The notes: generated by a model not told the origin, from the sequence alone. Numbered from the stretch's first letter, positions 767 through 13,484 are shown. The stretch: 13,484 nt of DNA from Deinococcales bacterium (GCA_031414595.1 JANNVX010000069.1:1-13484), one strand, 5' to 3'. A program made the numbers and translations.

Positions 767-841
767 TAGGGCGTTGCACCAATTCTTAGGGCAATTCGAG
801 TTGCACCAATTCCTAGGGCAATTCGAGTTGCACCAATTCCT
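767..841. repeat. 27-bp tandem repeat (2 perfect copies + 1 copy with an internal 7-bp deletion)
   Basis: TAGGGCAATTCGAGTTGCACCAATTCC at 787-813 and 814-840; TAGGGC-GTTGCACCAATTCT at 767-786. Confidence 0.93.
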
Positions 842-1349
842 CAAAGCCTGGCACTGGACGGCGGGCATCGGCATCCCACTTTGGGTTATCTACATAAAAA
901 AGTTGCACATCACAACCCTCGAACTTGAGTTTTAATGCCATCATCGCTAACGCCGCGACCATGGCTTTTGTACCACTGGTGATTTCAAATACAAGGTTCG
1001 CATACGGCAGGGCAATTTGGCGCACAGCTTGGTAAATGGTGTTTGTACCAGCCCGTTCTATCTCGAGGGCATGAATGGTTTGGTTCGGGCAGTACAATCG
1101 TATTTTCTCGAGCAGCGGCAGGGTTTCTTTAGTGCCAAGCAGATAGACATTCTTAGCCCCAATTTTTCTAGCCGCGATAATCACAGGTTCGATGCTTGTG
1201 CCAAGGGTGTGAATGCTTAGGTTTGGAGTCGGGAAAACACTTGGCGTTAGGCTCGAGAAGAGCAAGGGGTGAATCTGCTGCTCGAGGTAGGCTTGGCGGT
1301 CTGGGGCAGGAAGGGTTTTGTAGTGCTGCCAGAGGGTAGGGAGGGTCAT
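813..1349 (-). CDS. CARF-domain-only protein resembling the N-terminal CARF of Thermus-type Csm6 (candidate ring nuclease, or truncated Csm6)
   Basis: Motifs SIHTLGTS, VYLLGT, EITSGTKAM and YVDNPKWDADARRPVPG. Start at ATG 1349 overlaps the upstream stop (ATGA). 178 aa, no HEPN. Confidence 0.8.
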   Translation of the reverse strand: MTLPTLWQHYKTLPAPDRQAYLEQQIHPLLFSSLTPSVFPTPNLSIHTLGTSIEPVIIAARKIGAKNVYLLGTKETLPLLEKIRLYCPNQTIHALEIERAGTNTIYQAVRQIALPYANLVFEITSGTKAMVAALAMMALKLKFEGCDVQLFYVDNPKWDADARRPVPGFEELVQLELP

Positions 1350-1915
1350 TTGGTCAACACCCCCCAATACTCGTAAATGCGTGGCGTTACTGGCATGGAT
1401 TTATGAAAGAGCTTCACAGCTTTCCAATTGTCAAAAACAGCACCAATCTGCACCGCCATCATTGCTGGTCCTTGATAGAAAATAAGTAATTCAGAACAAC
1501 CTAATTCTGAAAGCTCGTTGCGTAACTGTCGAAGCTGTTCAATAAATTTTTGAGTATCTTCTAACGGTTGTATAATCCCCTGTAAGTTAATCGTTTTGAT
1601 GCCATGAACTCTTGTGTTACTTATATCCAAAAAAGTTTTTACATCGTTTTCGATGCTGCTTTGTCCAGGTGATAAGGAAATGGCGAGCGCATAGGGATTT
1701 TGAGTTTGAATCGTTTCCCAAGTATTAAACACTTCTTCATAATTACCAAGGGGTCGCACTTCTCGAGCCGCACGACGTAATCTCAGAGCTTGCTGACGTA
1801 CCATCCACCATGTAGAAACAGCAATTAGGATAGAAACAATGCCAAGGTATACTCCAACAGAATCTAGGAATTTCGTTAAACCTTGCTCTGCTAACCATAA
1901 AGTCCAGTCTTTCAT
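1346..1915 (-). CDS. Transmembrane + SAVED/CARF-like cyclic-oligonucleotide sensor (Cam1-like architecture)
   Basis: N-terminal hydrophobic helix VGVYLGIVSILIAVSTWWMV. C-terminal SAVED-like motifs ALAISLS, LLIFYQGPAMMAVQIG, VKLFH and YEYWGVL. RBS GAGG. Confidence 0.7.
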   Translation of the reverse strand: MKDWTLWLAEQGLTKFLDSVGVYLGIVSILIAVSTWWMVRQQALRLRRAAREVRPLGNYEEVFNTWETIQTQNPYALAISLSPGQSSIENDVKTFLDISNTRVHGIKTINLQGIIQPLEDTQKFIEQLRQLRNELSELGCSELLIFYQGPAMMAVQIGAVFDNWKAVKLFHKSMPVTPRIYEYWGVLTK

Positions 1916-1924
1916 GCTTACCTC

Positions 1925-3076
1925 TTATGTTTTCTGAATTGCAATTTCTAAAACTCCACAAACTTTGCTTACCTTTTCCCAAACAGAATTTCTGATCTGA
2001 TGAACTGCTTGTGGCTTCTTTCCTGCACTTACATGACCAATTTTATTGCGAAGAGGTCGTACTTCTGACCATAAAGCAGCCAATTCTCTTTCCGAATCAT
2101 TCTCTGATAGTTGCCAAGTATCAAAACTTGTTTCTGCTTGTTTTCGAGTTGCATAATCCGAATCTGGCTGAACTCCCAATCGAACGCAAGCAATAGAAAC
2201 CAATGCTTCTCGAGCCGCTAAAATAGCTTGGGTTGGTTGTTGAGTTTCTTGGTAGAAACGCAGCATTGCAAGGGCTTTGGCTAGAAAAGATGCTGGATTA
2301 AATGTTTGCACTCTTCGGTCAATTGAATCAAGTAATAAGCCTAATGGTTGTTGAATTGTTTGAAACGAGGAATCTCGAGGTAAATCCTGTAAATTTTGAC
2401 TTAGTTTTGTTGCTGCTTCAGCAGTTTCATTAGGACGTAATAATTCGAGGGCAGATGTAAAATTATTAAGGTTATTACCAAAATCTATAAGGGTTTTGCT
2501 ACCAATTCTTTTGTTTTCATCAATCAGTAAATTTCTTAGTTCCGCACCGTCTCCATAACTTAAGAAACTATTTCCAGCACTTGCCCAACGCAAAAGCGTT
2601 AGGGTTGGAAGTAAGTCAAATACAGGACGTGGTAATGGTGAAGATTTATCTACAACATCAAAAGCCCCATAATAAACTCCTTTAATGCTTACTTTACGTA
2701 CTACTTGCAAATAACTAGCAGCCACAAACGCGAACAAAGGTTGTGAGCGAAATCCATGTGTAATGTCCAGAATCAATTCAGCTTGCTCTGGAACAGCATC
2801 TATAAGCGCAGAGAATGCAGCCCATAACTCTTGTTCATTTGCACCTGAAGGAATATCAAGAATACATTGTTCTATATTACTAATCTGTTGTTTTAACTCT
2901 CCTTCATGTGTTGCTCGAGCTTCTTTTGTTAAAGCCAGTTTAAGTTCATAGTCAGGAAACCAATTTTGAAGTGCAAGAGGAAAAAATTTAGTTCTAAACG
3001 GAGTAAATGAGCCTAATTCCCATGTGACTTCATCAAGTTTATTTTTCCCAAGGAATGCAAGAATTATTTTTTTCAT
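1925..3076 (-). CDS. csx1: Csx1 family (TM1812-like) CARF-HEPN ribonuclease
   Basis: N-terminal ILAFLG, LDITHGFRSQP and VYYGAFD; C-terminal HEPN RNKIGH (R-X4-H). Lies directly downstream of cmr6. Confidence 0.88.
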   Translation of the reverse strand: MKKIILAFLGKNKLDEVTWELGSFTPFRTKFFPLALQNWFPDYELKLALTKEARATHEGELKQQISNIEQCILDIPSGANEQELWAAFSALIDAVPEQAELILDITHGFRSQPLFAFVAASYLQVVRKVSIKGVYYGAFDVVDKSSPLPRPVFDLLPTLTLLRWASAGNSFLSYGDGAELRNLLIDENKRIGSKTLIDFGNNLNNFTSALELLRPNETAEAATKLSQNLQDLPRDSSFQTIQQPLGLLLDSIDRRVQTFNPASFLAKALAMLRFYQETQQPTQAILAAREALVSIACVRLGVQPDSDYATRKQAETSFDTWQLSENDSERELAALWSEVRPLRNKIGHVSAGKKPQAVHQIRNSVWEKVSKVCGVLEIAIQKT

Positions 3077-3123: not shown

Positions 3124-4356
3124 TCATGTTGTACCTTCAAGGAGTTCTAAAAACTTTGTATACCAAGACTTTTCTTGTCCGTCACGAATTCCAGATTTTT
3201 TAAGTTCTTCTTCACTAACTAGGCTTATAGCTTTTCGGGCAGTCTCGAGTTTTAGTTGTTTCTCGCACTGTAAATCATTGATTCGTCCAATCAGGTTTGA
3301 TGGTTGTTGCCTAAACATCCGTATTTTTTGTTCATTGTCTAATTCTTCAAGAATAGCTTGAGCTTTCTTATTCTCACGTTCAAGAAGCGCTCGAGCTTGC
3401 TGCTCTGCATCTATTGATGGCTTATCCGACTTAATTTGAATTCGTTCGGATTCTCCAGAGTTGTTTTTGGGAGCTTCTTGTTGAAGGGAAATCAAACGTC
3501 CGTAACCACTCGAGGTTTTTGCGCCTATACCTTCTTTTTCTAATGCCGCAATTAGAATAGTTTGAGTGATTTGTATTTTTTGCGTAGCTTGTATTTTTGC
3601 TTGCTCGAGTTCTTCGGGTTTTGCATTTAGAGTTGTTATCATCAAAGCATTTAAGTATATTACGAATTCGCCCTGAGCGCTTAAAAAAGAGATTGGAACA
3701 GGTTTATCCCAGTCGGCTGGTGGAAAAATTGAATCGTTTTGATTGTTGGTTTTTCCGCCATAGTAATCACTATGATGCGGGGTCATAACATCCTCAAGCA
3801 AATATGACGTGTTTGGTTTGGGTAAAGCATCGTAAAATGTCATTGCTCCACGTTGTGTAGTATCTCCAAAAAATTCTTTATGCAAAGCCTTATCTCTGCA
3901 CCATTCACCTTGCAGGTATTTGTGGGCGTAACTTGCTACCAAACCTTTTATAGCGCTTCCGGGAATGTAGGGTATTCCCCAAGTTCGATGTAATGCTATG
4001 TTGGTCTCGAGAACACCATCAATGCCTAGCCCAACTGCTAAACGACTGGTGTCTGGAGTTCTAGCCTGTGTTTCTTGTGCGCCTAGTTGCTGGAGTGTTT
4101 TGCACCAAATATCAAAAAAAGTTTCGTAGCCTTCTGGTTCAAGATTTTTTTCATCGGCTAATTCTCTAACAAGGGCGGTTTTTTCTTTGACTTCTTTGGT
4201 TCGGTCGGCATCTTTGAGGGTACTACGCATGTACTTGTCAAGCCATAAACCAGCATGACTATCGGTATCAAAAGTCTTTTCAATGGCAATAAGATCATGT
4301 CGCCGCGTTGGTTTAATTTTCAACTGATCTCTTTGAGAACGCTGATATTGTGTCAT
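3124..4356 (-). CDS. cmr6: Type III-B RAMP Cmr6 with a C-terminal extension
   Basis: HAGLWLDKY, RLAVGLG, LHRTWGIPYIPGSAIKG, DVMTPHHSDYY, PADWDKPVPISFL, GIGAKTSSGYG. Confidence 0.95.
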   Translation of the reverse strand: MTQYQRSQRDQLKIKPTRRHDLIAIEKTFDTDSHAGLWLDKYMRSTLKDADRTKEVKEKTALVRELADEKNLEPEGYETFFDIWCKTLQQLGAQETQARTPDTSRLAVGLGIDGVLETNIALHRTWGIPYIPGSAIKGLVASYAHKYLQGEWCRDKALHKEFFGDTTQRGAMTFYDALPKPNTSYLLEDVMTPHHSDYYGGKTNNQNDSIFPPADWDKPVPISFLSAQGEFVIYLNALMITTLNAKPEELEQAKIQATQKIQITQTILIAALEKEGIGAKTSSGYGRLISLQQEAPKNNSGESERIQIKSDKPSIDAEQQARALLERENKKAQAILEELDNEQKIRMFRQQPSNLIGRINDLQCEKQLKLETARKAISLVSEEELKKSGIRDGQEKSWYTKFLELLEGTT

Positions 4357-4730
4357 TCTCTATCCTCCGTATCTGCTTTAACACCCAGTTTGCTTTCTGC
4401 GAATCGTTTGAACCAGACGCAAACCTCGAGACTACGGCGTGTGAGGCGCATATATTCCTGAAGGGGTGCATTGCGTACATCAGTTCCGAATAGCTCAGTG
4501 GTTGTTTGAGGATTTTCAGAAACGACTACACAAAAGTCCTTTAACATTTTTTTCTCTGCTTCTTTAGCTGCTTTAGAATCTGCGAAGGCTAAGGCATGAG
4601 CTAAGCCAGCACTTCGAATCAATACAGGCAATTTATGCGCCCATTTACCGTAGACATCTGCATCAGATGCGCTTTTTTCCGGAACTTTTTCCCAAACGGC
4701 TTTGGCAAGGCGTTGTTTACGACTTTGCAT
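4353..4730 (-). CDS. cmr5: Type III-B small subunit Cmr5
   Basis: KLPVLIRSAGLAHALAF and YMRLTRRSLEVCVWFKRFAE. Start at ATG 4730 (MQSRKQ, AGGTGG RBS), 125 aa. Confidence 0.92.
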   Translation of the reverse strand: MQSRKQRLAKAVWEKVPEKSASDADVYGKWAHKLPVLIRSAGLAHALAFADSKAAKEAEKKMLKDFCVVVSENPQTTTELFGTDVRNAPLQEYMRLTRRSLEVCVWFKRFAESKLGVKADTEDRE

Positions 4731-5610
4731 GGTTGCCACCTGCCTTTGGGGGAAATCGTAATTGACACACACCACGACCTACGCTGGATTTACCTCCAAG
4801 CTGTACAGGAGTTTTCGCTAAGTCCTTAATTTTTTCGAGGATTTCTTGACTGCTTAACAGAGCTTTGGCATTTTCGCCGTTTCTTGAGCGTCGTTCAGAT
4901 ACTGTTTGCACCAAGCCAACCAAAACACTTTCTGTGGGTAGGCTTTCTTCATACCACAATGCCCCTTTTGCCACTGTTTTAGTATCTTCCTCGAGCCTAA
5001 TTCGAGCAGTTACTTCAGTGGCAGTTTCTAGTAAAAACGTCATTGCATCGTCATGAACAACACAAAAACGCTGCTTAAAAAATTCTTTCCAGTCTTCTCC
5101 AAACGCGAGTTTACTCAAATAGTCTGCCCATTCTTCAGCTTGTGCATTTGGTATTAAATCAAGTTCCTCGAGATACACCTTTTTTCCTAATGCTGTTTTC
5201 GTTGCGGTGGCGCAGTCTACTTCATTATTGATAAGCACAGTATTTACTTGTGGTATGTCTTTTTCTCCCACAACTTCGAGATCGCGTACAAATCGCTTTA
5301 ATAAGTAAGGGCTAGTCACATACGCAAATGTTCCTGCAAGGCTTCGCACAGGTAAGCACAACAACCGAGCATCAGTAAATACGGCTGCGCCTGCATTCTC
5401 GAGTTCAAGAGAACCAAAAATAGAGTATTCCTCAAGCATTTTTTGATTCCGAGCTTGTTCACGAAGTACGCCCTTAATACTTGAACCGGGTAAAAATGGA
5501 ATACCTGTAGATTTTTCTTTTGCAATCGGTAGGTCTATCACGTCCACGCCTTGCCCTGTGCCAGCGTGAAGTGGTGAAAGTGCATGAATAAAAACTATTG
5601 TATTGTTCAT
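4717..5610 (-). CDS. cmr4: Type III-B RAMP Cmr4 (target RNA cleavage subunit)
   Basis: HALSPLHAGTG..IDLPI (catalytic Asp present), PGSSIKGVLR, DARLLCLPVRS, GALWYEESLP, QLGGKSSVGRG. Confidence 0.97.
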   Translation of the reverse strand: MNNTIVFIHALSPLHAGTGQGVDVIDLPIAKEKSTGIPFLPGSSIKGVLREQARNQKMLEEYSIFGSLELENAGAAVFTDARLLCLPVRSLAGTFAYVTSPYLLKRFVRDLEVVGEKDIPQVNTVLINNEVDCATATKTALGKKVYLEELDLIPNAQAEEWADYLSKLAFGEDWKEFFKQRFCVVHDDAMTFLLETATEVTARIRLEEDTKTVAKGALWYEESLPTESVLVGLVQTVSERRSRNGENAKALLSSQEILEKIKDLAKTPVQLGGKSSVGRGVCQLRFPPKAGGNHAKS

Positions 5611-7067
5611 TTTAACTCCTTGAGTAAAGCCTGAATGACATCAATCTCGCCATTTAATGGAACGGTTGCTTCCTGCCCAGAGTGAATTTCATAGGCTACA
5701 TGTTGGGTCGGTATTTCCTTTAGTTTAAGTCCATTAGGAGGTATCAGTGGCGTACTTAATGCAATAACCACTACTCCTTGAAAATCTCCATAATGAAAAG
5801 GACGTATGATAATCGGACTGGCTAAACGCTCGTGTTGTCTACCTTCTAGTGTAATGGTGGGAGTTGGTGCGCCAATAAATTGAAAAATAATCGGTAGTCC
5901 TAGCACAGCCCTTGGGAAAACTTCTATGGCTTTTCCATTAGCATCTTTATGCTCATCTAAAGGGTCTCGGTGTCGAAAATGAGAACTGCCCGTAATTTGC
6001 CGAATGGCATCTGCCTCTGTCCATTTACTTCTACCTGGTCGTTGCCCGTTCCCTCTCCCGCGTTGCTGGCGAAATTGTTGATACTTGTTAATCGCATATT
6101 CCCAGTTAGACTTTGGGAAAACGATCTGCGATTTATCAGGAATTCTTGGTATTTCGTTTACGCTTAATCCAATTTTAACATGGGTGTTAAATGCTTGTTC
6201 AAACCAGTCTGAAAATTTTGTCGTAGGTTTTCTAGTGTCAGAAATTGCCCCAAAACCACGTCGAGTTCTCGCGCCAATACCACCAAAAACTTCCCATGCC
6301 CATAATGCCGCTTCTACTTCTTCTTGAATAGATTCACTTTTTAGGAAATAAATCTTGATCTGAAACTCAACACCACTCCAAACACTCCCATGAGGAATTT
6401 CTCCCCATTTATCTCCGTCGTTTCCGTCATGCTCGGGTTTTGTTGTTTCATCTTCTTCGGGGCGCATTGGAAAATACAAATAACTTGGTTCGATTAGGCA
6501 TTTGGTTTTCCATAGCCATTTACTTTTCTTGGGGTCGTCGTCGAATTTATATTCCCAAAATCCCTTAAAAACTTTCAATCGGTTTGCGTTCTCTGTACTT
6601 ATGTCAGTGACTTCTACCTGCACACGACTTTGTGCCAAACGCTTCGTGGCTATTTCAGATTTGGATAAATTATTTATGGTTTCGAGCTTAGACAACTCCT
6701 CTTGCTCTTCGGCAGCCGCTCCCCAAATCCAACCTTCTACAAGCCGTAATTTCTCGATGTCGGTAAACTCACGTTCAATTTTTCCGTTTTTATCACGCTT
6801 ATACTGCAAATCTTGTAATCTAAAATCTGCGATTAGTTTTTTGATGTGTTCATTACTTGCTCGAGCCGCCCGCCACCAAAAACGCAAGTGTCCGCGTATG
6901 CTGGTTGGGCGAATCAGTAGGTTTAGATCATTTTCTCCCGCACGCACACCCCCGCCATACAATGGTGTGAGTAACTTGTAGTGCCGTTGTATGGGGGTGT
7001 TTAGGGCTTGCCTCAGTTGTGTTTTTACTGCTTCTAAGGTCGGAAGTTCTACTGTTGCTCTTGGCAT
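5607..7067 (-). CDS. cmr1: Type III-B RAMP Cmr1
   Basis: LLTPLYGGG, IRPTSIRGHLRFWWRA, FGGIGARTRRGFG, FPRAVLGLPIIFQF, RLASPIIIRP. Confidence 0.95.
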   Translation of the reverse strand: MPRATVELPTLEAVKTQLRQALNTPIQRHYKLLTPLYGGGVRAGENDLNLLIRPTSIRGHLRFWWRAARASNEHIKKLIADFRLQDLQYKRDKNGKIEREFTDIEKLRLVEGWIWGAAAEEQEELSKLETINNLSKSEIATKRLAQSRVQVEVTDISTENANRLKVFKGFWEYKFDDDPKKSKWLWKTKCLIEPSYLYFPMRPEEDETTKPEHDGNDGDKWGEIPHGSVWSGVEFQIKIYFLKSESIQEEVEAALWAWEVFGGIGARTRRGFGAISDTRKPTTKFSDWFEQAFNTHVKIGLSVNEIPRIPDKSQIVFPKSNWEYAINKYQQFRQQRGRGNGQRPGRSKWTEADAIRQITGSSHFRHRDPLDEHKDANGKAIEVFPRAVLGLPIIFQFIGAPTPTITLEGRQHERLASPIIIRPFHYGDFQGVVVIALSTPLIPPNGLKLKEIPTQHVAYEIHSGQEATVPLNGEIDVIQALLKELK

Positions 7068-8233
7068 GGCATATCACCTGCTTTGCTAAGGTCTGGGGTT
7101 GTTAATTTGCCGTTCCATACGCCAAAAACCGCCAGCCCAAAGCCGTCTTTACAAGATTGCTCGTTATCACTGATGGTTTGAAACCAAACCCTTTCTAACC
7201 ATGTTCTGATTTCTTCTTCTTTTCCCTCGAGTTTTATAAAGTACACGCTGCCTGCTGGGGCGAGTCGGCGTGTGGCTTTAGGTTTTCCTGTTGCATAATC
7301 CCAACCACTGACAACTTGTGGTCTGCCTACGGATGCACTTATTAGTGTGTGGGTCTTCTCGAGTAAAAAAGTGGGTTTCCAACCTTTTGTAAAGTAAGCT
7401 GGGGTGAGCAGAATAACCCTACAGTGTTGATGCCCAACAATACTGTTGACCATCGCTTGTACTTGTTCACTACTAAATGCTAGAAACGTTGTGGTGGCTG
7501 TACTCCATGCCGATAAGCGCCGTTCTCCGCCGATACTCCAAAGGTTAGCATTGTGTTGAGGTTCTGGGGCAGTAGTTTGCAAGTGCAGTGCAAGACGTTT
7601 AGCGGTGGATAATTGCTTGTATTTTTCGTCTGGTTTTGGTTTGGGGACATAACGAAACTCAAGGGCGCTGGTGCTGAACAACTGGCTATCTTCGGCGGTT
7701 TGAGAATTCGGTTCAATTTTAACGTGGGTGCGGGTCTCGAGCGTGGGTCCAGCAATACCAAGGTTTTCTGGTTGGATACATTGCTCTGTTGGATTCTCGA
7801 GCCACTTAAAAAAATTGTTCCAATACCAGTATTTGGGCATTCCTTTGGGTTTGCCTTCAAGGTGTTTACTTGTCCCAACGGGTTTGTACTCAAGATTGCA
7901 AATTGTGCTGAGGGCATCGGTGTTGATTGGCAAAAGTGGAAATAGGTTTTTTTCATCAAGCATCAGCGCATCCAGTGGGGCTGGTACAAAAAATGTTTGT
8001 TCGTCAGGGCTGTATAACAATGCCCCAGATACGTCCCATGTTAGTACGTCTGTTGGTTTACTGCTAAATTGCCCAGTTGTATCTGAACCGGCTCGGGTGC
8101 GGATTGCACCTGTCACAGTGCTTGGCAATAGAAAATCCAGTGTTTTGGCACGTTGTCCAGCCTTGAATGGACGACCGTCCCGAGCCAGTAGCGGGTCTCG
8201 AGGTTCGATCAACAATTGATATTTTTGGGTCAT
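7049..8233 (-). CDS. cmr3: Type III-B Cmr3 (Cas5-like)
   Basis: IEPRDPLLARDGRPF, PSTVTGAIRT, IGGERR, LLTPAYF, VSGWD, PAGSVYF, DGFGLAVFG. Confidence 0.95.
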   Translation of the reverse strand: MTQKYQLLIEPRDPLLARDGRPFKAGQRAKTLDFLLPSTVTGAIRTRAGSDTTGQFSSKPTDVLTWDVSGALLYSPDEQTFFVPAPLDALMLDEKNLFPLLPINTDALSTICNLEYKPVGTSKHLEGKPKGMPKYWYWNNFFKWLENPTEQCIQPENLGIAGPTLETRTHVKIEPNSQTAEDSQLFSTSALEFRYVPKPKPDEKYKQLSTAKRLALHLQTTAPEPQHNANLWSIGGERRLSAWSTATTTFLAFSSEQVQAMVNSIVGHQHCRVILLTPAYFTKGWKPTFLLEKTHTLISASVGRPQVVSGWDYATGKPKATRRLAPAGSVYFIKLEGKEEEIRTWLERVWFQTISDNEQSCKDGFGLAVFGVWNGKLTTPDLSKAGDMPCQEQQ

Positions 8234-10047
8234 ACAGGCTCCTTTATAATTTTGCCGTATTCATTGCGTTTTTCGTCTTTTGCAACAATGTTTCGCAGTT
8301 TTGCTGCATCGGCAAATAGTCGGGCTACCAGAAGCTCATTGACAATCTCAAGCCATTCTGCATGTTTTTTATCTTGGGGCTTTTTGCCTACCCGTACTTG
8401 TAGTTTTTTTATGAAAATATCTATGGCAAACTTTTGTGCATTTTTGCGGTTTAAGATTCGTTCAGCTTCCACGATTTGTGCTTCTGGTATTCCCTCGAGT
8501 TCTCGAATCATGTCGCGCAGTTCAAAAGCCACACCATCGGGTAATGCGTCTGCTACCCAAGTGGCTCTGACTTCCTGAAGGCTTGTGGTAAGTTCTTGAT
8601 ATTTTCCTTTGACTCCAATATCTGCCCCACTGCGCTTGGCAACTGTGATACACAAAGCGTTTTTACCCTCTATTTCTTTGGCTTTTTTCTCGGCGGCTCG
8701 AGCGGCTTCTAAGGCTTCTTGCAATGGCTCGAGGTGATGCCAGACAACCATGCCTGCCGAGAAGCTGGGTTTTACTGTTTGATTTTTACCTTTCGTGTCC
8801 TTATATGTTTGCTCATATTGACCTACTGCCTGATCAAAGGCTTGGTTTAGTCCCCAAGAGCATTCGAGCGCTGTATGCAGTGGTAAAAGTGCTAAAACAT
8901 CATCGCCACCAGCATAAATCAAGCAGCCTTGTGCGTCTTCTACAATTTCGCGGGCTTTTGTTGCAAAACCTGCAAGGTCACTCGAGAAGTCCTGATGTTT
9001 TTTTATGCCTTGTGTGGTCAGTAAATCTATGGTTTTACCCATATTGTCCCCATCACCTAGAAATAAGGCATAGTACGGAAGTGGTTCTTTGCCTTTTGAA
9101 ATATCTTTGAATAGGCTTTTTAATTTTTCTTGTGCAATTTTGATGCGTTCGTTCAATGTTTTTTTCTCAGGCTCGTCGTAATCCAGAAATTCTTGTAAAC
9201 GACTCTGAAATAATGCCGCCCCTGTTAAGTCAAATAGCGAATCATCGTTGCCGCCAGCAATTTTATTAACCGCCTCAAAGTATTCTGTAATTTGTGCCAT
9301 GTTTTCTTGGGTAACAATGGTGCTGGCAGCAACACTCGAGGTACTGGCAAATTTTTCATGGCTTGTAGGGTCTATTCCACGCATTCCAAGGCGTTTTACC
9401 AAACCAACACCGCACAATCGTTCGCCCTTTTTAAGTCCTAGCCTACGGAGGTTATGGTCTTTATCGTCGTCTGGTGTAACAATTTCTCGAGCGCCATCTA
9501 GACTTGATTTTGGAATACTATCCATTGCCCAAGTGGGAGCTTGGAAAGTACGAGTTGCTTTTCGGGCATCTAATGTGTGACTGACACGCCTTCGCACTTC
9601 AGTGTAGCTTTCTTTTTCTTGCCATTGGGTGATTGCCCAGTACGACTCGAGTAAATCATCAATTTGTTTTTCAACAATTTTTAGTTGGTAAGGACTTAAA
9701 ACTGCTTTGTTTTTGTTTTTGGTCAAGGCATCATCACGAATCTCGTTTAGTCGGGATTTACCAGCTTGTATTGCCGCTTCAGCAATGGCTTTAGCCTCTG
9801 TTTCATCTGTAGCCAAAATTTTGCATAAGATAATATTGGCTACGTTCAAGCCTCGTGGTTGCTTAGGCTCAAGGTCTTTTTCTTGGGGATTCGGAAAAAT
9901 CAATTCTTGGTTTTGTAAGTATTTCGCAACAGCTTTACTGCATTCACTCAGTAAGTAGCTCCCAAACCAGAGGTCTCGTGTTTTTCGTGCAGTAGCAATA
10001 AAGTCTTGCACGGGTCCTAGGGCTATCAGTAGTAGATAATCAGGCAT
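8230..10047 (-). CDS. cas10: Cas10/Cmr2 large subunit (HD-less, Palm cyclase intact)
   Basis: N-terminal GPVQDFIATARKTRDLWFGSYLLS; YYALFLGDGDNMG; IYAGGDDVLAL; SAGMVVWH. AAGGAG RBS. Confidence 0.97.
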   Translation of the reverse strand: MPDYLLLIALGPVQDFIATARKTRDLWFGSYLLSECSKAVAKYLQNQELIFPNPQEKDLEPKQPRGLNVANIILCKILATDETEAKAIAEAAIQAGKSRLNEIRDDALTKNKNKAVLSPYQLKIVEKQIDDLLESYWAITQWQEKESYTEVRRRVSHTLDARKATRTFQAPTWAMDSIPKSSLDGAREIVTPDDDKDHNLRRLGLKKGERLCGVGLVKRLGMRGIDPTSHEKFASTSSVAASTIVTQENMAQITEYFEAVNKIAGGNDDSLFDLTGAALFQSRLQEFLDYDEPEKKTLNERIKIAQEKLKSLFKDISKGKEPLPYYALFLGDGDNMGKTIDLLTTQGIKKHQDFSSDLAGFATKAREIVEDAQGCLIYAGGDDVLALLPLHTALECSWGLNQAFDQAVGQYEQTYKDTKGKNQTVKPSFSAGMVVWHHLEPLQEALEAARAAEKKAKEIEGKNALCITVAKRSGADIGVKGKYQELTTSLQEVRATWVADALPDGVAFELRDMIRELEGIPEAQIVEAERILNRKNAQKFAIDIFIKKLQVRVGKKPQDKKHAEWLEIVNELLVARLFADAAKLRNIVAKDEKRNEYGKIIKEPV

Positions 10048-10076
10048 GACACTCCTTGTTGAATTGTTTGTTGCTC

Positions 10077-10112
10077 AGTGTACAGATTTATTTAGAGCAT
10101 TGCTAGAGCATT
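10077..10112 (-). promoter_or_regulatory. Putative cmr operon promoter (-35 TAGCAA, 17 bp, -10 TACACT) overlapped by 9-bp direct repeats with an 11-bp period
   Basis: Plus-strand TAGAGCATT at 10093-10101 and 10104-10112. -10 at 10077-10082 and -35 at 10100-10105 on the minus strand. Confidence 0.5.
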
Positions 10113-10155
10113 ATGTTAAACTATAAATTACATAAATTATCTGAGCCTAGTACAC

Positions 10156-11853
10156 TCAATTAAGGTATTGCTCTCGAGTTTTTACTGGCTCGAGTGCCGC
10201 TAATTCTTGTGCCACTTCCAAAACCCAATTGCTGCGGATGCCTTCTAGGTAAGCACTGGCTTTGCGCTTGTTGCGAATGTCGGTCGCGTCGTAAATCCAA
10301 TTGGTTTGCGGGTCTAGTTGGATCGTGTTGCCTCGTACCAAAATACTTTCTTGCCAACCAAGGGCGTTTCGTAAGCGTTTTACCAAGTCCCAAACTGCGC
10401 CGTATTTCTTTTTGGCGATGTCTTCTTTTGGGTAAAGGTATTCGATGATCGTTTCGACGTGGGCGCGTCCTTGAAGCTCGAGCAGTAAAGCCAAGAATTC
10501 GCCAATCCGTCCGGTTGGGCTGATGCGAATTGGTATTTGATTAACGCTGACTTGTAGTACGCCGCAAGCCTTGACTTGGATGGTGTTTGGGGTGTGGGCT
10601 TCTTGACCCCAAAAATGCACCTGTCGGGCTTGGGTCGCTTGGGGTGGCTCGAGTCCTGCCAGTTGGTTGAGGTCTTTCCAAAATGAAATTTCTTCTTTTA
10701 GATTGGCGCTGTTAAAACTGATTGGCTCGAGTAAGGCTAGGGCTTGTGTGCCTTTTTTTTCTTGGCGTAGGATTTCGGCGCTCAGGATTGTGGCAATGCT
10801 TTGATAGTTTGGGTTGAGTTCAAGTTTGGTGTTTTCCAAGATGTGCTTGGCAAGGTCGAGGCGTTTTAAGCTAATCCAGCAGGCGGCACATTCAATTTCG
10901 ATGGCGGCAGTATTTTTTGGGTTGATTTGCTTGGCAGCTTCGAGCATTTCTAGGGCTTGGTTGGCTTGGTTATTCAGGCGTAAAGTGCGTCCTAGACTCC
11001 AATGTGCGGCGCATTGATCGTCGGTTTCTTGGGCGTAAGCAATGGCTTTTTGATAAGCAGCAATGGCTCGGGTATAGTCTTGGTTGTACCTGCGCCATTT
11101 GGCGATGCCTTGTAAGGCTCGAGACCGAAAGTGTTGTGCCTCTTGGTGACGGCATAGGCTCTCGGCTGCCAAGTAGTGGCGTTCGGCATCTGGGTTCATG
11201 GTTTGTAGGGCGAGTTCGCCAAGGTTGTACCTTGCCCATGCTAGGTGATAGTGGTCGCTGCGTAATTTGGGTAGGGCATTGGTTAAAAGGTCTCGAGCCA
11301 AATCGGTTTGGTTACTTTGTGTGCAGCACCAAGCGTGGTCAATCAGGGCTAAGCCAAGTAAGCGTCCGTTGAGGTGTTCTTGGGCTTGGTTAAAATCGGT
11401 TTGCCAGTCTGATTGTAAGTAAAATTGGGCAAGTCCACGGCGTTTATGGGCTGTGCCTAGGCTGGTTTTACTCAAGAATGGCATGATTTGGTCGAGTAAG
11501 TCATAAGCCGCTTGGGGTTGATTTTGTTGCAGCAATGCCCAAGCTCGCTCGAGCAGGATGGGTGCGTGGTCTGCTTGTATTGGGTAGGCATTGGTAAAGC
11601 TGATCAGGGTTTGGTCGTCTCGAGTTCCCATCAGGGCTTGGCTGTACAGGCTTGCCCATTGGGTGTTTTGTTCAAATTTTGTGGCTAAGAAGACTCGGAT
11701 TTGTTGCCATTGGCTTTGGCTTTGAACGTTACCAATCGCATTTTGGATGATTTCAAGGGCGACAGATTGGCGGTTATTGTTTAGCAGACTTTGAGCGCTT
11801 GTTAAGCTGTCCAGAAGCAGCACTCGAGGTCTTTTCATGAATGAGTTTAGCAT
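10156..11853 (-). CDS. TPR-repeat transcriptional regulator with a C-terminal SARP/OmpR-type winged helix and a BTAD remnant
   Basis: Multiple TPR-like helices (AWARYNLGELAL, YTRAIAAYQKAI, AHWSLGRTLRL). C-terminal VKACGVLQVSVN..EFLALLL..IIEYLYP..VWDLVKRLRNALG..YLEGIRSNWV. Start could be 11853 or 11838. Confidence 0.78.
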   Translation of the reverse strand: MLNSFMKRPRVLLLDSLTSAQSLLNNNRQSVALEIIQNAIGNVQSQSQWQQIRVFLATKFEQNTQWASLYSQALMGTRDDQTLISFTNAYPIQADHAPILLERAWALLQQNQPQAAYDLLDQIMPFLSKTSLGTAHKRRGLAQFYLQSDWQTDFNQAQEHLNGRLLGLALIDHAWCCTQSNQTDLARDLLTNALPKLRSDHYHLAWARYNLGELALQTMNPDAERHYLAAESLCRHQEAQHFRSRALQGIAKWRRYNQDYTRAIAAYQKAIAYAQETDDQCAAHWSLGRTLRLNNQANQALEMLEAAKQINPKNTAAIEIECAACWISLKRLDLAKHILENTKLELNPNYQSIATILSAEILRQEKKGTQALALLEPISFNSANLKEEISFWKDLNQLAGLEPPQATQARQVHFWGQEAHTPNTIQVKACGVLQVSVNQIPIRISPTGRIGEFLALLLELQGRAHVETIIEYLYPKEDIAKKKYGAVWDLVKRLRNALGWQESILVRGNTIQLDPQTNWIYDATDIRNKRKASAYLEGIRSNWVLEVAQELAALEPVKTREQYLN

Positions 11854-11877
11854 GAGGGGCGGTGTGTCCGCCCCCTC
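11854..11877 (-). promoter_or_regulatory. GC-rich hairpin between the peptide gene and the TPR regulator (attenuator or RBS-occluding stem)
   Basis: GGGGCGG-TGTGT-CCGCCCC (11856-11874), extendable with a bulge to 11854-11877. It abuts ATG 11853 and has no U-tract. Confidence 0.6.
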
Positions 11878-11885
11878 GGGTGGGT

Positions 11886-12017
11886 TTACCCGCCAGTATT
11901 GACTTTTCCTCCATCTTCAGCGTGGGCAACACTGCTTGGTAGGGCTGCAAAACCAAGCGTAAACAAGGCGAGAATAATGGCGATGGCACGGCGGGCGGTT
12001 TTTGCGATAATATCCAT
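11886..12017 (-). CDS. 43-aa secreted propeptide (Sec signal peptide + predicted 10-aa mature peptide EDGGKVNTGG); absent from the ORF track
   Basis: Translated by hand: MDIIAKTARRAIAIILALFTLGFAALPSSVAHAEDGGKVNTGG*. Perfect AGGAGG RBS (12023-12028) 5 nt before the ATG. Basic n-region, hydrophobic h-region and an A-H-A cleavage motif. Confidence 0.85.
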   Translation of the reverse strand: MDIIAKTARRAIAIILALFTLGFAALPSSVAHAEDGGKVNTGG

Positions 12018-12047
12018 GATGTCCTCCTAGACAGGCGGATAAGAACG

Positions 12048-12080
12048 GGCGCGGTGGAATCTTGGCGGATGAACCGCGCC
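12048..12080 (-). promoter_or_regulatory. Stem-loop in the 5' leader of the peptide gene
   Basis: GGCGCGGT (12048-12055) pairs with ACCGCGCC (12073-12080). GGCGGAT is repeated at 12034-12040 and 12064-12070. Confidence 0.5.
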
Positions 12081-12124
12081 TAGCGAATTGTAAAACTTAC
12101 GTCTGACCTCCTTTGCAAAAACTT

Positions 12125-12172
12125 TTGCCAATTGGCAATATTTACATTAGCAAATTAAATCTAATTTGTCTA
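12125..12172 (-). promoter_or_regulatory. Putative promoter of the peptide-TPR unit with two palindromic operator candidates
   Basis: -35 TAGACA (12167-12172), 17 bp, -10 TAATGT (12144-12149). CAAATTA-N4-TAATTTG at 12151-12168. Perfect TTGCCAATTGGCAA at 12125-12138. Confidence 0.55.
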
Positions 12173-12291
12173 TGACGATATTTTTATAAAATTAGTTTTT
12201 GCAAGAAAATTTTCAAAACACTAAGTATGGCGGCATCTATCGCTTTATAGACATAAAAATAAACCCTGTGTCGAAAATTCAATCTGCAAAC

Positions 12292-12708
12292 TCAATCGGG
12301 AATTGAAAGCATATGGATTCGAGGTGGAATCACATTGTCAATCCATGAAACAATCACATCTTCTAAAACTTTGCTGGCTTCCCAAGCACCAATACTCATC
12401 GGCACAGTACCACTGGTTAAATCCAGATATACGGCAAAATCATGAAGTTTTAGCTCGAGAAACAAAGGCAAAATATCTTGGTAAATCTGCTGAGTGTGGT
12501 CGTGAACAGTCACCGTTTGACCACGCTGAAACAAACGAGGCGCAACCCGACCAGTATGCTCGAGTTCCTGCTGAACCCGAGCGATATTTTCGCTAGATTG
12601 AGGAGTGCAAATAAACCAAACAAACTCGGGGTCTTTATCTAAAATAGCTGTAACGGCGGCTTTATAAGAACCCCCTAAAGTAACAATCAGCAGCAAATTC
12701 TTTTGCAT
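12292..12708 (-). CDS. Stand-alone CARF domain protein (138 aa)
   Basis: LLIVTLGGS, PEFVWFICTPQS, VYLDLTSGTVPMSIGA, VSWID. Start overlaps the upstream stop (TAATG). Confidence 0.8.
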   Translation of the reverse strand: MQKNLLLIVTLGGSYKAAVTAILDKDPEFVWFICTPQSSENIARVQQELEHTGRVAPRLFQRGQTVTVHDHTQQIYQDILPLFLELKLHDFAVYLDLTSGTVPMSIGAWEASKVLEDVIVSWIDNVIPPRIHMLSIPD

Positions 12709-13163
12709 TATTCACCCCTTAAATGAACTGTCCGAATTGAAGCTCGAGCTTGACTAAGTACCGAAAACATAGATATGAGAATTTCACAATCAGATGCGTC
12801 AAGTTCTTCGACTTGAGAAATAAAATTTCTGAACAACACAAAATTAGAACTCGGTTGATATGTAGTTGAATCAGCATCTTCAGGATAAATCACCACATCT
12901 GAGCCGTGAATATACACCAAAATCCGAACTGCCATATCATAACTTGGCATCAATTTCTTGTTCTCTAACCTAGAAATGAGCGATGGACTAACACGCCATT
13001 TTGCTTGATTAAAGTATTTGGAAGCTGCTTCAAGCGTATGGTTTTTAGCTTTTCGAGTCACAAAAAGCAAACGTCCAAGGTCGGCAAATGTGACAATTCT
13101 ATCCAGTCCATCTCTTGTAAAGCGAATCATCTGATTTGGTAACGCATTTTTTGGTCGTGCCAT
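12708..13163 (-). CDS. XRE/Cro-C1-type helix-turn-helix transcriptional regulator
   Basis: LGRLLFVTRKAKNHTLEAAS...VSPSLISRLENKKLMPSYDMAVRIL. Confidence 0.78.
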   Translation of the reverse strand: MARPKNALPNQMIRFTRDGLDRIVTFADLGRLLFVTRKAKNHTLEAASKYFNQAKWRVSPSLISRLENKKLMPSYDMAVRILVYIHGSDVVIYPEDADSTTYQPSSNFVLFRNFISQVEELDASDCEILISMFSVLSQARASIRTVHLRGE

Positions 13164-13347: not shown

Positions 13348-13484
13348 GGATTTGTCCGTAAATAACTTCCCTATTTGGAAATGATGAAACATTGTTTCCT
13401 AGCAGGACAGACACAGGGGTCTGTCCCTACAAAATCCATAAAAATACGTCAGGTAGGGGCGGACCCCCGTGTCCGCCCTGTGAC
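13348..13484. mobile_element. Left part of MITE-like element (TIR 13348-13370, preceded by TAA 13345-13347), containing the REP doublet 13405-13478
   Basis: The TIR matches the reverse complement of 111-133. Joining the ends through the 79-bp overlap gives a 191-bp non-coding element. Confidence 0.7.
13406..13484. repeat. 79-bp terminal direct repeat (identical to 1..79)
   Basis: Exact match to the window start. Confidence 0.97.

Follow-up and report, generated by a model that had tools for sequence, protein, structure and literature searches.

A putative peptide-pheromone and receptor gene pair at the head of a type III-B CRISPR-Cas operon in Deinococcota

Peptide signalling through cytoplasmic tetratricopeptide repeat (TPR) receptors is regarded as a trait of the Bacillota and their phages. 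The systems known from these hosts (Rap/Phr, NprR/NprX, PlcR/PapR, Rgg/SHP, ComR/XIP, PrgX and AimR/AimP, together RRNPP(A)) are compared here with a pair of genes from the diderm phylum Deinococcota. The pair lies on a 13,484-bp contig of a Deinococcales bacterium (GCA_031414595.1, JANNVX010000069.1), the whole of which we call the window. There, an open reading frame (ORF) of 43 amino acids (aa), coding for a putative exported propeptide, is followed by the gene for a TPR protein and then by cas10, which opens the cmr operon of a type III-B CRISPR-Cas system. We propose that the 43-aa ORF and the 560-aa TPR protein are a peptide pheromone and its cytoplasmic receptor, which together would control the adjacent cmr promoter. 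We put the probability of this reading at about 0.55.

RRNPP systems are taken here as they are defined in the accessible text of PMC10075063 and PMC11343458. The locus resembles them in three ways: a gene for a predicted exported propeptide adjoins that of a cytoplasmic TPR-type receptor, several such pairs with distinct peptides occur in one genome, and the modelled TPR domain superposes on RapI, RapF-PhrF and NprR with Z-scores of 22-23 (20.3 for NprR-NprX). It differs from them in its output, which is a C-terminal winged helix of the SARP/OmpR type and not an N-terminal XRE-type helix-turn-helix (HTH) or a phosphatase surface, in its diderm host and in its peptide tails, which start with acidic residues and end in glycines or two cysteines; many copies also stand at cas operons. 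There is no significant match in sequence either: ComR_TPR reached E 0.0011 and 19 bits, against a cut-off of 26.5 bits, in two of 39 receptor family members, and no other RRNPP family is among the Pfam matches of these 39. The proposed circuit would operate in the manner of RRNPP quorum sensing, but we do not count it among the RRNPP family. A term search of the RRNPP surveys PMC10075063 and PMC9765709 found neither Deinococc* nor CRISPR nor winged.

Cell-to-cell signals that adjust cas expression are known from other circuits. Acyl-homoserine-lactone or Agr circuits tune it in Serratia, Pseudomonas and Staphylococcus (PMC5179492, PMC9563714 and 10.1101/2023.01.17.524377); going by the accessible text of these papers, the regulators are global and encoded elsewhere, whereas here the genes for signal and receptor lie within the cas locus, and at two CRISPR types. 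In a survey of type III accessory genes (PMC6546367, as far as its text and tables were available), cluster 198 is listed as 'C3a198, TPR protein' (Mrub_1490, from Meiothermus) with subtype III-B and three members. Compared by this table label only, Mrub_1490 is likewise a TPR protein tied to III-B cassettes, but the row is a label without domain analysis, propeptide or function. In the accessible part of a survey of CRISPR-linked genes (10.1101/270033), TPR is named only in STAND NTPases. Literature searches on Deinococcus or Deinococcota with peptide quorum sensing, TPR, WYL, cas3 and CRISPR found nothing relevant. Within the text available from these sources, we have therefore found no prior description of a propeptide-receptor pairing at cas operons, apart from the table entry 'TPR protein' in PMC6546367.

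The timing of costly CRISPR-Cas expression is largely an open question, and the known quorum-sensing inputs are global. If the broadest form of our reading (a pheromone family of the Deinococcota's own) is true, CRISPR-Cas would gain its first cell-to-cell signal encoded at the locus itself, and RRNPP-like systems their first example outside the Bacillota and their mobile elements. The picture of peptide signalling would be widened by such a counterpart, distinct in structure and found in a diderm phylum. The question is directly testable, because the signal and receptor genes head the cas operon, and the predicted ligands are short and can be synthesized. There are cultured carriers, namely Allomeiothermus silvanus DSM 9946 (on plasmid pMESIL01) and several Deinococcus strains. 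Small propeptide genes are often absent from annotation, as in A. silvanus.

A reading of the sequence alone had described the 43-aa ORF with its ribosome-binding site, signal sequence and tail, and all of these are present, on the minus strand (Table 1). In the ORF, codons 1-33 specify a Sec-type signal sequence with A-H-A as its last three residues, and codons 34-43 specify the tail EDGGKVNTGG (11889-11918), which is presumed to be the mature signal. By inspection, the features of a Sec (type I) signal peptide are all there: a basic n-region (K6, R9, R10), a hydrophobic core of 16 residues and small residues at -3 and -1, followed by the 10-aa tail. The mean Kyte-Doolittle value of the hydrophobic segment is 2.18 over 19 residues. 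The GGAGG site is also found at two other III-B-linked loci, L002 and L007. The first of these belongs to the same genome, where a second full set of HTH, CARF, propeptide, receptor and cas10 genes is located on another contig (G000 contig C82:55149-59792).

The receptor encoded at C82 is only 58% identical to that of the window, yet the 10-residue tail is identical; in L007 there is one V-to-I change. Over the 43 codons, the two III-B-linked copies of this genome have 13 synonymous and 10 non-synonymous differences. In codons 26-43, which cover the cleavage region and the tail, there are 10 synonymous differences and one non-synonymous difference, as against three synonymous and nine non-synonymous in codons 1-25. 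The same pattern is seen in the comparison with L007 and in other clades. Judged by these codon differences, the tail is under purifying selection. Because the tail is identical at both III-B loci, one signal could govern the two III-B systems of this genome.

The pair is not confined to the III-B loci. There are six receptor paralogues in the genome (26-58% identity), each with a propeptide ORF upstream on the same strand, and their tails are EDGGKVNTGG (twice, both before cas10), EDEPKIGTGG, GDDPGGGTGG, ENGPHCC and GDCPGGMVC. The receptor is present in 22 of the 41 genomes searched, often in several copies, and in 17/18 of those of the same family, this genome not counted. We collected 63 distinct receptor genes from the 22 genomes with a match, of which 55 could be assessed; the N-terminus is missing in six of the others and the upstream DNA in two. 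A propeptide gene is located upstream of 49 of the 55, with 28 tails ending in glycine, 20 ending in two cysteines and one variant. Three more have partial propeptides (in one the tail stands at the edge of a contig, in another the tail lacks a signal segment, and the third copy is disrupted at its 5' end) and one has an unrelated tail. The distance from propeptide stop to receptor start is 6-211 nt (median 62). As a control, we took every ORF of 300 aa or more in the genome (1889 in all) and inspected the DNA upstream of it. Some hydrophobic small ORF stands there in 160 cases; in four cases it has a family-type tail, and the gene that follows is each time a receptor paralogue. The tail pattern was taken from the family itself, and this control shows specificity, not discovery.

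A profile of the C-terminal domain was searched across the phylum and matched 173/364 genomes. By family, the matches were in 18/18 genomes of f1 (the per-family handles are ours), 82/125 of f3, 30/68 of f5 and 0/23 of f4; those in f2 (42/128) were weak only, about 1e-9 to 1e-14, and may belong to another family of proteins. At the 20 best loci from f3 and f5, a propeptide was found in 15, with tails such as AGDEPKIGTGG, AGDGPKCCAGG and ADDGAKPNAGGG. The expectation from the sequence-only reading that homologous receptors would have propeptide genes next to them is borne out by these counts (49/55, with three partial, and 15/20). Among 1.84 billion representatives, the C-terminal domain was found in 175 proteins at E 1e-10 or better and in 87 at 1e-30, and in full-length relatives (500-630 aa) the winged-helix domain is always C-terminal. 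On these searches the receptor family is small and uniform in architecture. There are eight metagenomic homologues of the III-B clade (P0002-P0010). Single-protein searches of genome and metagenome contigs for further receptor relatives gave no matches; an alignment-based search gave one weak metagenome match and one contig of a metagenome-assembled genome (MAG), which is probably the same locus as L007.

In a tree of the 51 full-length receptors (FastTree, midpoint-rooted; 12 partial genes left out), the genes linked to WYL regulators and cas3 form one large clade, and the three III-B-linked genes form their own clade beside the S8-linked and cysteine-class clades. The tails follow the receptor clades. 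A scan for covarying glycine-rich tails had been proposed; the tails do track the receptor clades, and 20 of them end in two cysteines.

The tails are C-terminal and 7-12 residues long, with acidic residues first and glycines or two cysteines last. Of the 46 that have an acidic pair, 36 measure 9-10 residues from the first acidic residue to the C-terminus; A, G or V directly precedes the tail in 42, and I, L or V stands three residues before it in 34. This conserved boundary has the look of a processing site. It falls on a classical A-x-A signal-peptidase site in the window; in the cysteine class it is found 20-30 residues past the hydrophobic segment, and release of the tail there would take a second protease. 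In one receptor clade (L003, L008, L010 and L063, with tails EDEPKIGTGG and ADDSTKGGTGG) the gene immediately upstream, on the same strand, codes for an S8 subtilase, a candidate processing protease.

The same spacing of 20-30 residues in the cysteine class would also suit a small protein that is never cleaved, and that stays in the membrane as a single-pass co-sensor with its N-terminus inside and its tail outside. We regard this as unlikely. There would then be no diffusible signal: the conserved short N-terminus would hold or release the TPR regulator in the cytoplasm, and the tail would sense a cue from the envelope or the environment, such as metal, redox state or a protease. An anchor of this kind would account for the N-terminal motif M-x-R/K-T/I-A-K, which recurs in distant clades, and for the residue before the tail in the cysteine class, which is often V and makes a poor signal-peptidase site; C-x-x-C tails also resemble metal or redox sites. 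However, a textbook A-x-A site immediately precedes the tail of the window peptide, and constraint is greatest in the last 10 residues and in the cleavage region, whereas at the N-terminus 9 of 12 codon differences are non-synonymous. Additionally, TPR domains typically bind extended peptide termini, and the presence of distinct tail types within one genome is pheromone-like.

The receptor gene had been described as a frame of 565 aa that starts 32 nt downstream of the propeptide stop codon. That frame and gap are present, but we amend the start: the second ATG (11838, MKRPR..., 560 aa), which is 47 nt 3' of the propeptide stop, is more likely to be the true one because all close homologues begin there and the C82 paralogue has a stop codon between the two ATGs. 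Pfam TPR families are matched in 39/39 receptor members. A full-length AlphaFold model built from the 39 members has a mean predicted local distance difference test score (pLDDT) of 92.1 and a predicted template modelling score (pTM) of 0.89. In it the N-terminus is TPR from residue 8, and the sole DNA-binding domain is C-terminal. The protein has no transmembrane-like segment (maximum Kyte-Doolittle value 1.04) and by this measure it is soluble.

The C-terminal domain is barely seen by Pfam (Trans_reg_C in 2/39 members, E 0.019). Its family profile, compared with solved structures, has four matches only, CadC, EmbR, CarR and AfsR (E 0.013-0.28). Modelled separately (pLDDT 92.9), the domain has its best fold match in the AfsR transcription activation complex 8hvr (E 5.6e-5, TM-score 0.70, 156 columns), and then in EmbR, PhoB-DNA and many response-regulator effector domains. 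The TPR protein with a C-terminal winged helix that was recognized from the sequence is therefore confirmed by Pfam, by the structure-profile matches and by the model fold, as is the order of its domains, reversed with respect to RRNPP receptors; we assign the winged helix to the SARP/OmpR type. The nearest clusters in the ESM Atlas include BTAD/TPR regulators (0.93-0.95), which is a lead only.

When the whole model was used in Foldseek, generic TPR superhelices alone were among the top rows. Among the candidates that were re-aligned, the Z-scores were 23.3 for RapI, 22.4 for a Rap-pheromone complex, 22.4 for NprR, 22.3 for the Rap of phage phi3T with pheromone, 22.2 for RapF-PhrF, 21.9 for MalT domain III and 20.3 for NprR-NprX. 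Generic TPR proteins stood level with these (LGN, 24.5; OGT, 23.9). The modelled TPR fold is compatible with a peptide pocket like that of Rap or NprR, without singling it out.

With the SARP regulators (AfsR, EmbR, ActII-ORF4 and DnrI) the receptor has in common the winged-helix fold of its C-terminal domain, whose best matches are AfsR 8hvr and then EmbR; its candidate operators, direct repeats of 11-bp period that closely precede a -10 box, would also match the SARP arrangement. It differs from them in the reversed order of its parts, TPR first and DNA-binding domain last. Only two helices follow the wing, and only the first helices there are BTAD-like, the Pfam family BTAD being without a match. 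Furthermore, it has no ATPase domain and it is paired with a propeptide gene. It differs from response regulators such as OmpR and PhoB in that no receiver (REC) domain is among its Pfam matches; its N-terminal 394 residues are TPR helices.

As the sequence-only reading had it, the receptor gene lies immediately upstream of cas10/cmr2, with 108 nt between the stop of the one and the start of the other. We aligned the non-coding DNA of the three III-B-linked loci (the window, C82 and L007), whose receptors are 49-58% identical. There is a direct repeat in the spacer before cas10, and its position is conserved (AACGCTC..AATGCTT in C82, AATACTC..TATGCTT in L007), so that two copies of the pattern A-A/T-T/C-G/A-C-T-C/T stand 11 bp apart in 3/3 loci. 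The candidate -10 hexamers that follow are TACACT, TAGAAT and TATGCT; all share T, A and T at positions 1, 2 and 6, and the spacing is equal in 3/3. Direct repeats one helical turn apart that take the place of a -35 box are a signature of SARP/OmpR-type activators. The repeat is a candidate operator for the winged helix of the receptor, and its geometry suggests activation of cmr. The invariant block that spans the receptor stop codon (10136-10160) holds a short inverted repeat and a GATAAT hexamer.

At the loci where a WYL regulator follows the receptor there is a different site. The pattern [GT][CT]GACN-N5-[GT][CT]GACN, followed after exactly 9 nt by TAnnnT, is present in 19/32 WYL-linked loci in comparison with 4/38 other loci; 8.98 million background positions gave 80 hits, which corresponds to 0.002 per stretch of the size searched. 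GCGACA-like hexamers 11 bp apart are seen in the receptor-WYL spacers of L004, L015, L022, L025, L032, L038, L044, L054, L055 and others.

Upstream of the propeptide gene there is a G+C-rich leader element of 36 nt that is nearly invariant in the three III-B-linked loci despite diverged flanking DNA, and that occurs in this genome at the two III-B cassettes only. Its predicted fold has a free energy of -22.5 kcal/mol (z -1.7). An Rfam scan of 9900-12400 gave no family, except for one chance-level match at E 0.6. Since its conservation exceeds that of the coding sequence beside it, the element probably functions as an RNA or is bound by a protein.

Directly after the propeptide stop codon there is a G+C-rich hairpin, terminator-like but without a T run, with a predicted free energy of -17.9 kcal/mol (z -1.9). 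Its stem covaries: L007 has compensatory changes (GGGGGTGGC/GCCACCCCC as against GGGGCGG/CCGCCCC). The candidate -10 box TAAACT just before the second ATG suggests a separate, nearly leaderless transcript for the receptor, and many homologues have a TAnnnT hexamer at about 5-10 nt before the start codon of the receptor. Other clades also have hairpins after the propeptide gene, together with the -10 hexamer arrangement. The recurrence of this arrangement across clades implies that propeptide and receptor would be separate transcription units.

The hairpin between the two genes and the closeness of the ORF to the receptor gene (the 6-211 nt given above) could also be read as marks of a cis-acting upstream ORF, in which translation alone controls the receptor gene and the peptide has no function. 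This is very improbable. Purifying selection acts on the amino acids of the tail, a signal-like segment is kept throughout the phylum, and the receptor gene seems to have its own -10 box past the hairpin.

Taken together, the pheromone and receptor reading leads us to the following scheme, in which we infer every biochemical step and also the sign of regulation. The propeptide gene would be transcribed as its own short unit that ends at the hairpin. Sec would export the propeptide, and a cut after A-H-A would release a peptide of about 10 residues that starts with an acidic motif; in other members of the family the cut would be made by a second protease. The peptide would build up outside the cell and be re-imported, for example by an Opp-type transporter (there are 15 matches to Opp/Dpp-type binding proteins in the genome). 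It would then bind inside the TPR superhelix of the cytoplasmic receptor, itself made from its own near-leaderless promoter. Binding would shift the occupancy by the winged helix of the two direct repeats, at the -35 position of the cas10 promoter, and so switch cmr transcription.

Several observations weigh against this scheme. Among the sequencing runs listed as containing 9900-12400 of the window there are eight DNA metagenomes and no RNA run. Cells of the host phylum are bounded by an outer membrane, which adds a step to export and another to re-import. The glycine-rich tails are unlike the known RRNPP pheromones, and the TPR fold, as modelled, resembles Rap and NprR no better than it does generic TPR proteins such as LGN and OGT. 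No recognizable propeptide was found for 2/55 receptors, or for 5/20 of those from the other families. The degenerate III-B repeat is not enriched genome-wide, with four hits beyond the two cas10 promoters as against about 2.3 expected, and the repeats at the WYL-linked loci might just as well be bound by the WYL regulator. Finally, a repeat of the cas10-promoter type was sought upstream of the propeptide gene, and neither the window nor L007 has one; C82 alone has an 11-bp-spaced repeat there. A self-induction loop, which is common in such systems, is therefore not visible in the window.

The genes that follow the receptors tie the family to CRISPR-Cas more widely. Directly 3' of the 63 receptors there is cas10/cmr2 in three cases, a WYL/WCX regulator (mostly then cas3) in 19 and cas6 with cas3 in one. 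At least 23/63 receptor genes are thus located directly before cas genes or WYL/cas3, and this is a lower bound because 9/63 are cut at the 3' end by the end of the contig. In the other families, WYL and/or cas3/cas6 are found downstream in 15/20 loci. On plasmid pMESIL01 of A. silvanus DSM 9946, a receptor annotated as 'tetratricopeptide repeat protein' (MESIL_RS17030) precedes the type I-C genes cas3-cas5c-cas8c, and 146 nt upstream of it there is an unannotated propeptide ORF of 57 aa ending in DGDDPKIGTGG. In Deinococcus sp. KNUC1210 (MF271_RS02160/02155) the propeptide is annotated as a hypothetical protein of 57 aa, and a WYL regulator follows the receptor. The cassette had been thought to be dedicated to a cas operon. 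It does recur at cas operons beyond the window, but it is not dedicated to them, as pairs are also located next to S8 peptidase, MazF-type, LuxR-type and other genes. Since both the WYL/cas3-linked and the III-B clades carry it, the receptor family appears to have been recruited to two CRISPR types, while also serving other neighbourhoods.

These pairs away from cas, beside S8 peptidase, MazF-type and LuxR-type genes, would also be expected if the small gene coded for an exported end product (antimicrobial, adhesive or metal-binding), and the receptor were only the transcription factor for it and for genes nearby, and sensed something else. SARP-type regulators classically control secondary-metabolite genes, which fits that idea. 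We consider it improbable, a little more so than the membrane co-sensor. No modification or dedicated export genes are conserved beside the pair, and peptides of 7-12 residues that are mostly G, D, P and K are unlikely effectors. Moreover, the cas promoter that bears the repeats adjoins the receptor gene and not the peptide gene, and strict one-to-one pairing, with tails that follow the receptor clades, is a better fit for a ligand.

Returning to the pheromone reading, its broadest form is that Deinococcota have a pheromone family of their own, made up of a Sec-exported propeptide and a cytoplasmic TPR receptor with SARP-type output, convergent with RRNPP and diversified so that one genome would use many types of signal. 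A large branch of this family would serve III-B and type I cas loci as a switch that licenses immunity, and in this genome one peptide would co-ordinate two III-B systems. We advance this wider proposal tentatively and would give it somewhat less than even odds.

Table 1. Features of the window and of one related plasmid locus. Positions refer to the window, counted from its first nucleotide, except in the last row.
Feature	Position	Strand	Basis
Propeptide gene, 43 aa, MDIIAKTARRAIAIILALFTLGFAALPSSVAHAEDGGKVNTGG	11886..12017	-	Direct reading and family conservation
Ribosome-binding site GGAGG, 5 nt upstream of propeptide ATG	12023..12027	-	Direct reading
G+C-rich leader element of propeptide gene, 36 nt, possible 8-bp G+C-rich stem	12045..12080	-	Alignment, fold
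G+C-rich hairpin directly 3' of propeptide stop codon, terminator-like, no T run	11854..11877	-	Predicted fold
Candidate -10 box TAAACT, 5 nt before second ATG	11844..11849	-	Direct reading
Receptor, 560 aa from second ATG (565 aa from 11853)	10156..11838	-	Pfam TPR families, model
TPR superhelix of receptor	Residues 8-394 (about 10657-11838)	-	Model
Low-confidence linker of receptor	Residues 395-418		Model
SARP/OmpR-type winged helix and two further helices of receptor	Residues 419-560 (10159-10584)	-	Model and fold search
Block TTGAGTGT-N6-CTCAGATAAT spanning receptor stop codon	10136..10160	-	Invariant in three III-B-linked loci
Direct repeat AATGCTC-TAGC-AATGCTC, 11-bp period, cas10 promoter	10095..10112	-	Three-locus alignment
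Candidate -10 box TACACT of cmr operon, 12 nt after second repeat	10077..10082	-	Three-locus alignment
cas10/cmr2, 605 aa, GGDD motif	8230..10047	-	Pfam Cas10-Cmr2_palm2 E 4e-34, Cmr2_N; NCBIfam TIGR02577 E 8e-60
cmr3	7049-8233	-	Pfam/NCBIfam
cmr1	5607-7067	-	Pfam/NCBIfam
cmr4	4717-5610	-	Pfam/NCBIfam
cmr5	4353-4775	-	Pfam/NCBIfam
cmr6	3124-4356	-	Pfam/NCBIfam
XRE-type HTH protein, 151 aa	12708..13163	-	Pfam HTH_3 E 4e-4
Small stand-alone CARF-like protein, 138 aa	12292..12708	-	NCBIfam TIGR02710, N-terminal 100 positions, E 3.7e-9, below curated cut-off
TM1812/DxTHG-family protein	1925-3076	-	NCBIfam TIGR02221 E 1.7e-27
SAVED-like ORF, 189 aa	1346-1915	-	SAVED E 1.8e-6, below cut-off
184-aa ORF, weak CARF match	813-1367	-	Pfam/NCBIfam scan
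A. silvanus propeptide ORF, between parA and receptor gene	L154 4176-4349 (NC_014213.1, pMESIL01)		

Every gene of the window is on the minus strand. Read 5' to 3', the order is the XRE-type HTH gene, the CARF-like gene, an A+T-rich spacer of 274 nt, the 43-aa ORF, the G+C-rich hairpin, the TPR gene (from 11853 or 11838 to 10156), the 108-nt spacer, and then cas10/cmr2, cmr3, cmr1, cmr4, cmr5 and cmr6. The type III-B (Cmr) gene set is complete, all six genes being matched by NCBIfam and Pfam. On the 3' side of cmr6 there are the TM1812/DxTHG-family gene, the SAVED-like ORF and the 184-aa ORF, and then, where the contig ends, a group II intron reverse transcriptase in truncated form.

The XRE-type gene and the CARF-like gene lie upstream of the cassette and overlap by one base, the stop codon of the first overlapping the start of the second. 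The same XRE-type gene precedes the C82 III-B locus (HTH_31, E 1e-6 there), and the CARF-like gene is conserved at C82 and in L007. The pair (12292-13163), which is thus also found before the C82 III-B locus, resembles a split Csa3-like regulator (CARF plus HTH), and it could respond to cyclic oligoadenylate. At the other end of the operon, next to the truncated intron reverse transcriptase, the SAVED-like ORF of 189 aa and the 184-aa ORF (813-1915) fall short of the usual length of their families, and may represent an accessory effector gene that has been split or disrupted.

The earlier placing of the host in Deinococcota holds: its rpoB matches 'Deinococcales bacterium' entries at 81-99% identity and Trueperaceae at 72-75%. 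Additionally, one receptor homologue is assigned by NCBI to a Deinococcales MAG. The genome amounts to 4.49 Mb in 120 contigs, with 47% G+C, and the window is one whole contig. Its two ends are identical over 79 nt (1-79 and 13406-13484), and a circular contig was considered for this reason. It was rejected: the 79-mer occurs at 33 places in the genome, mostly contig ends, and is therefore the edge of a multi-copy element that breaks the assembly. This element is perhaps a group II intron, with the reverse transcriptase ORF at 116-874. In the region of that ORF there is also a tandem duplication of 27 nt, 96% identical, at 773-826.

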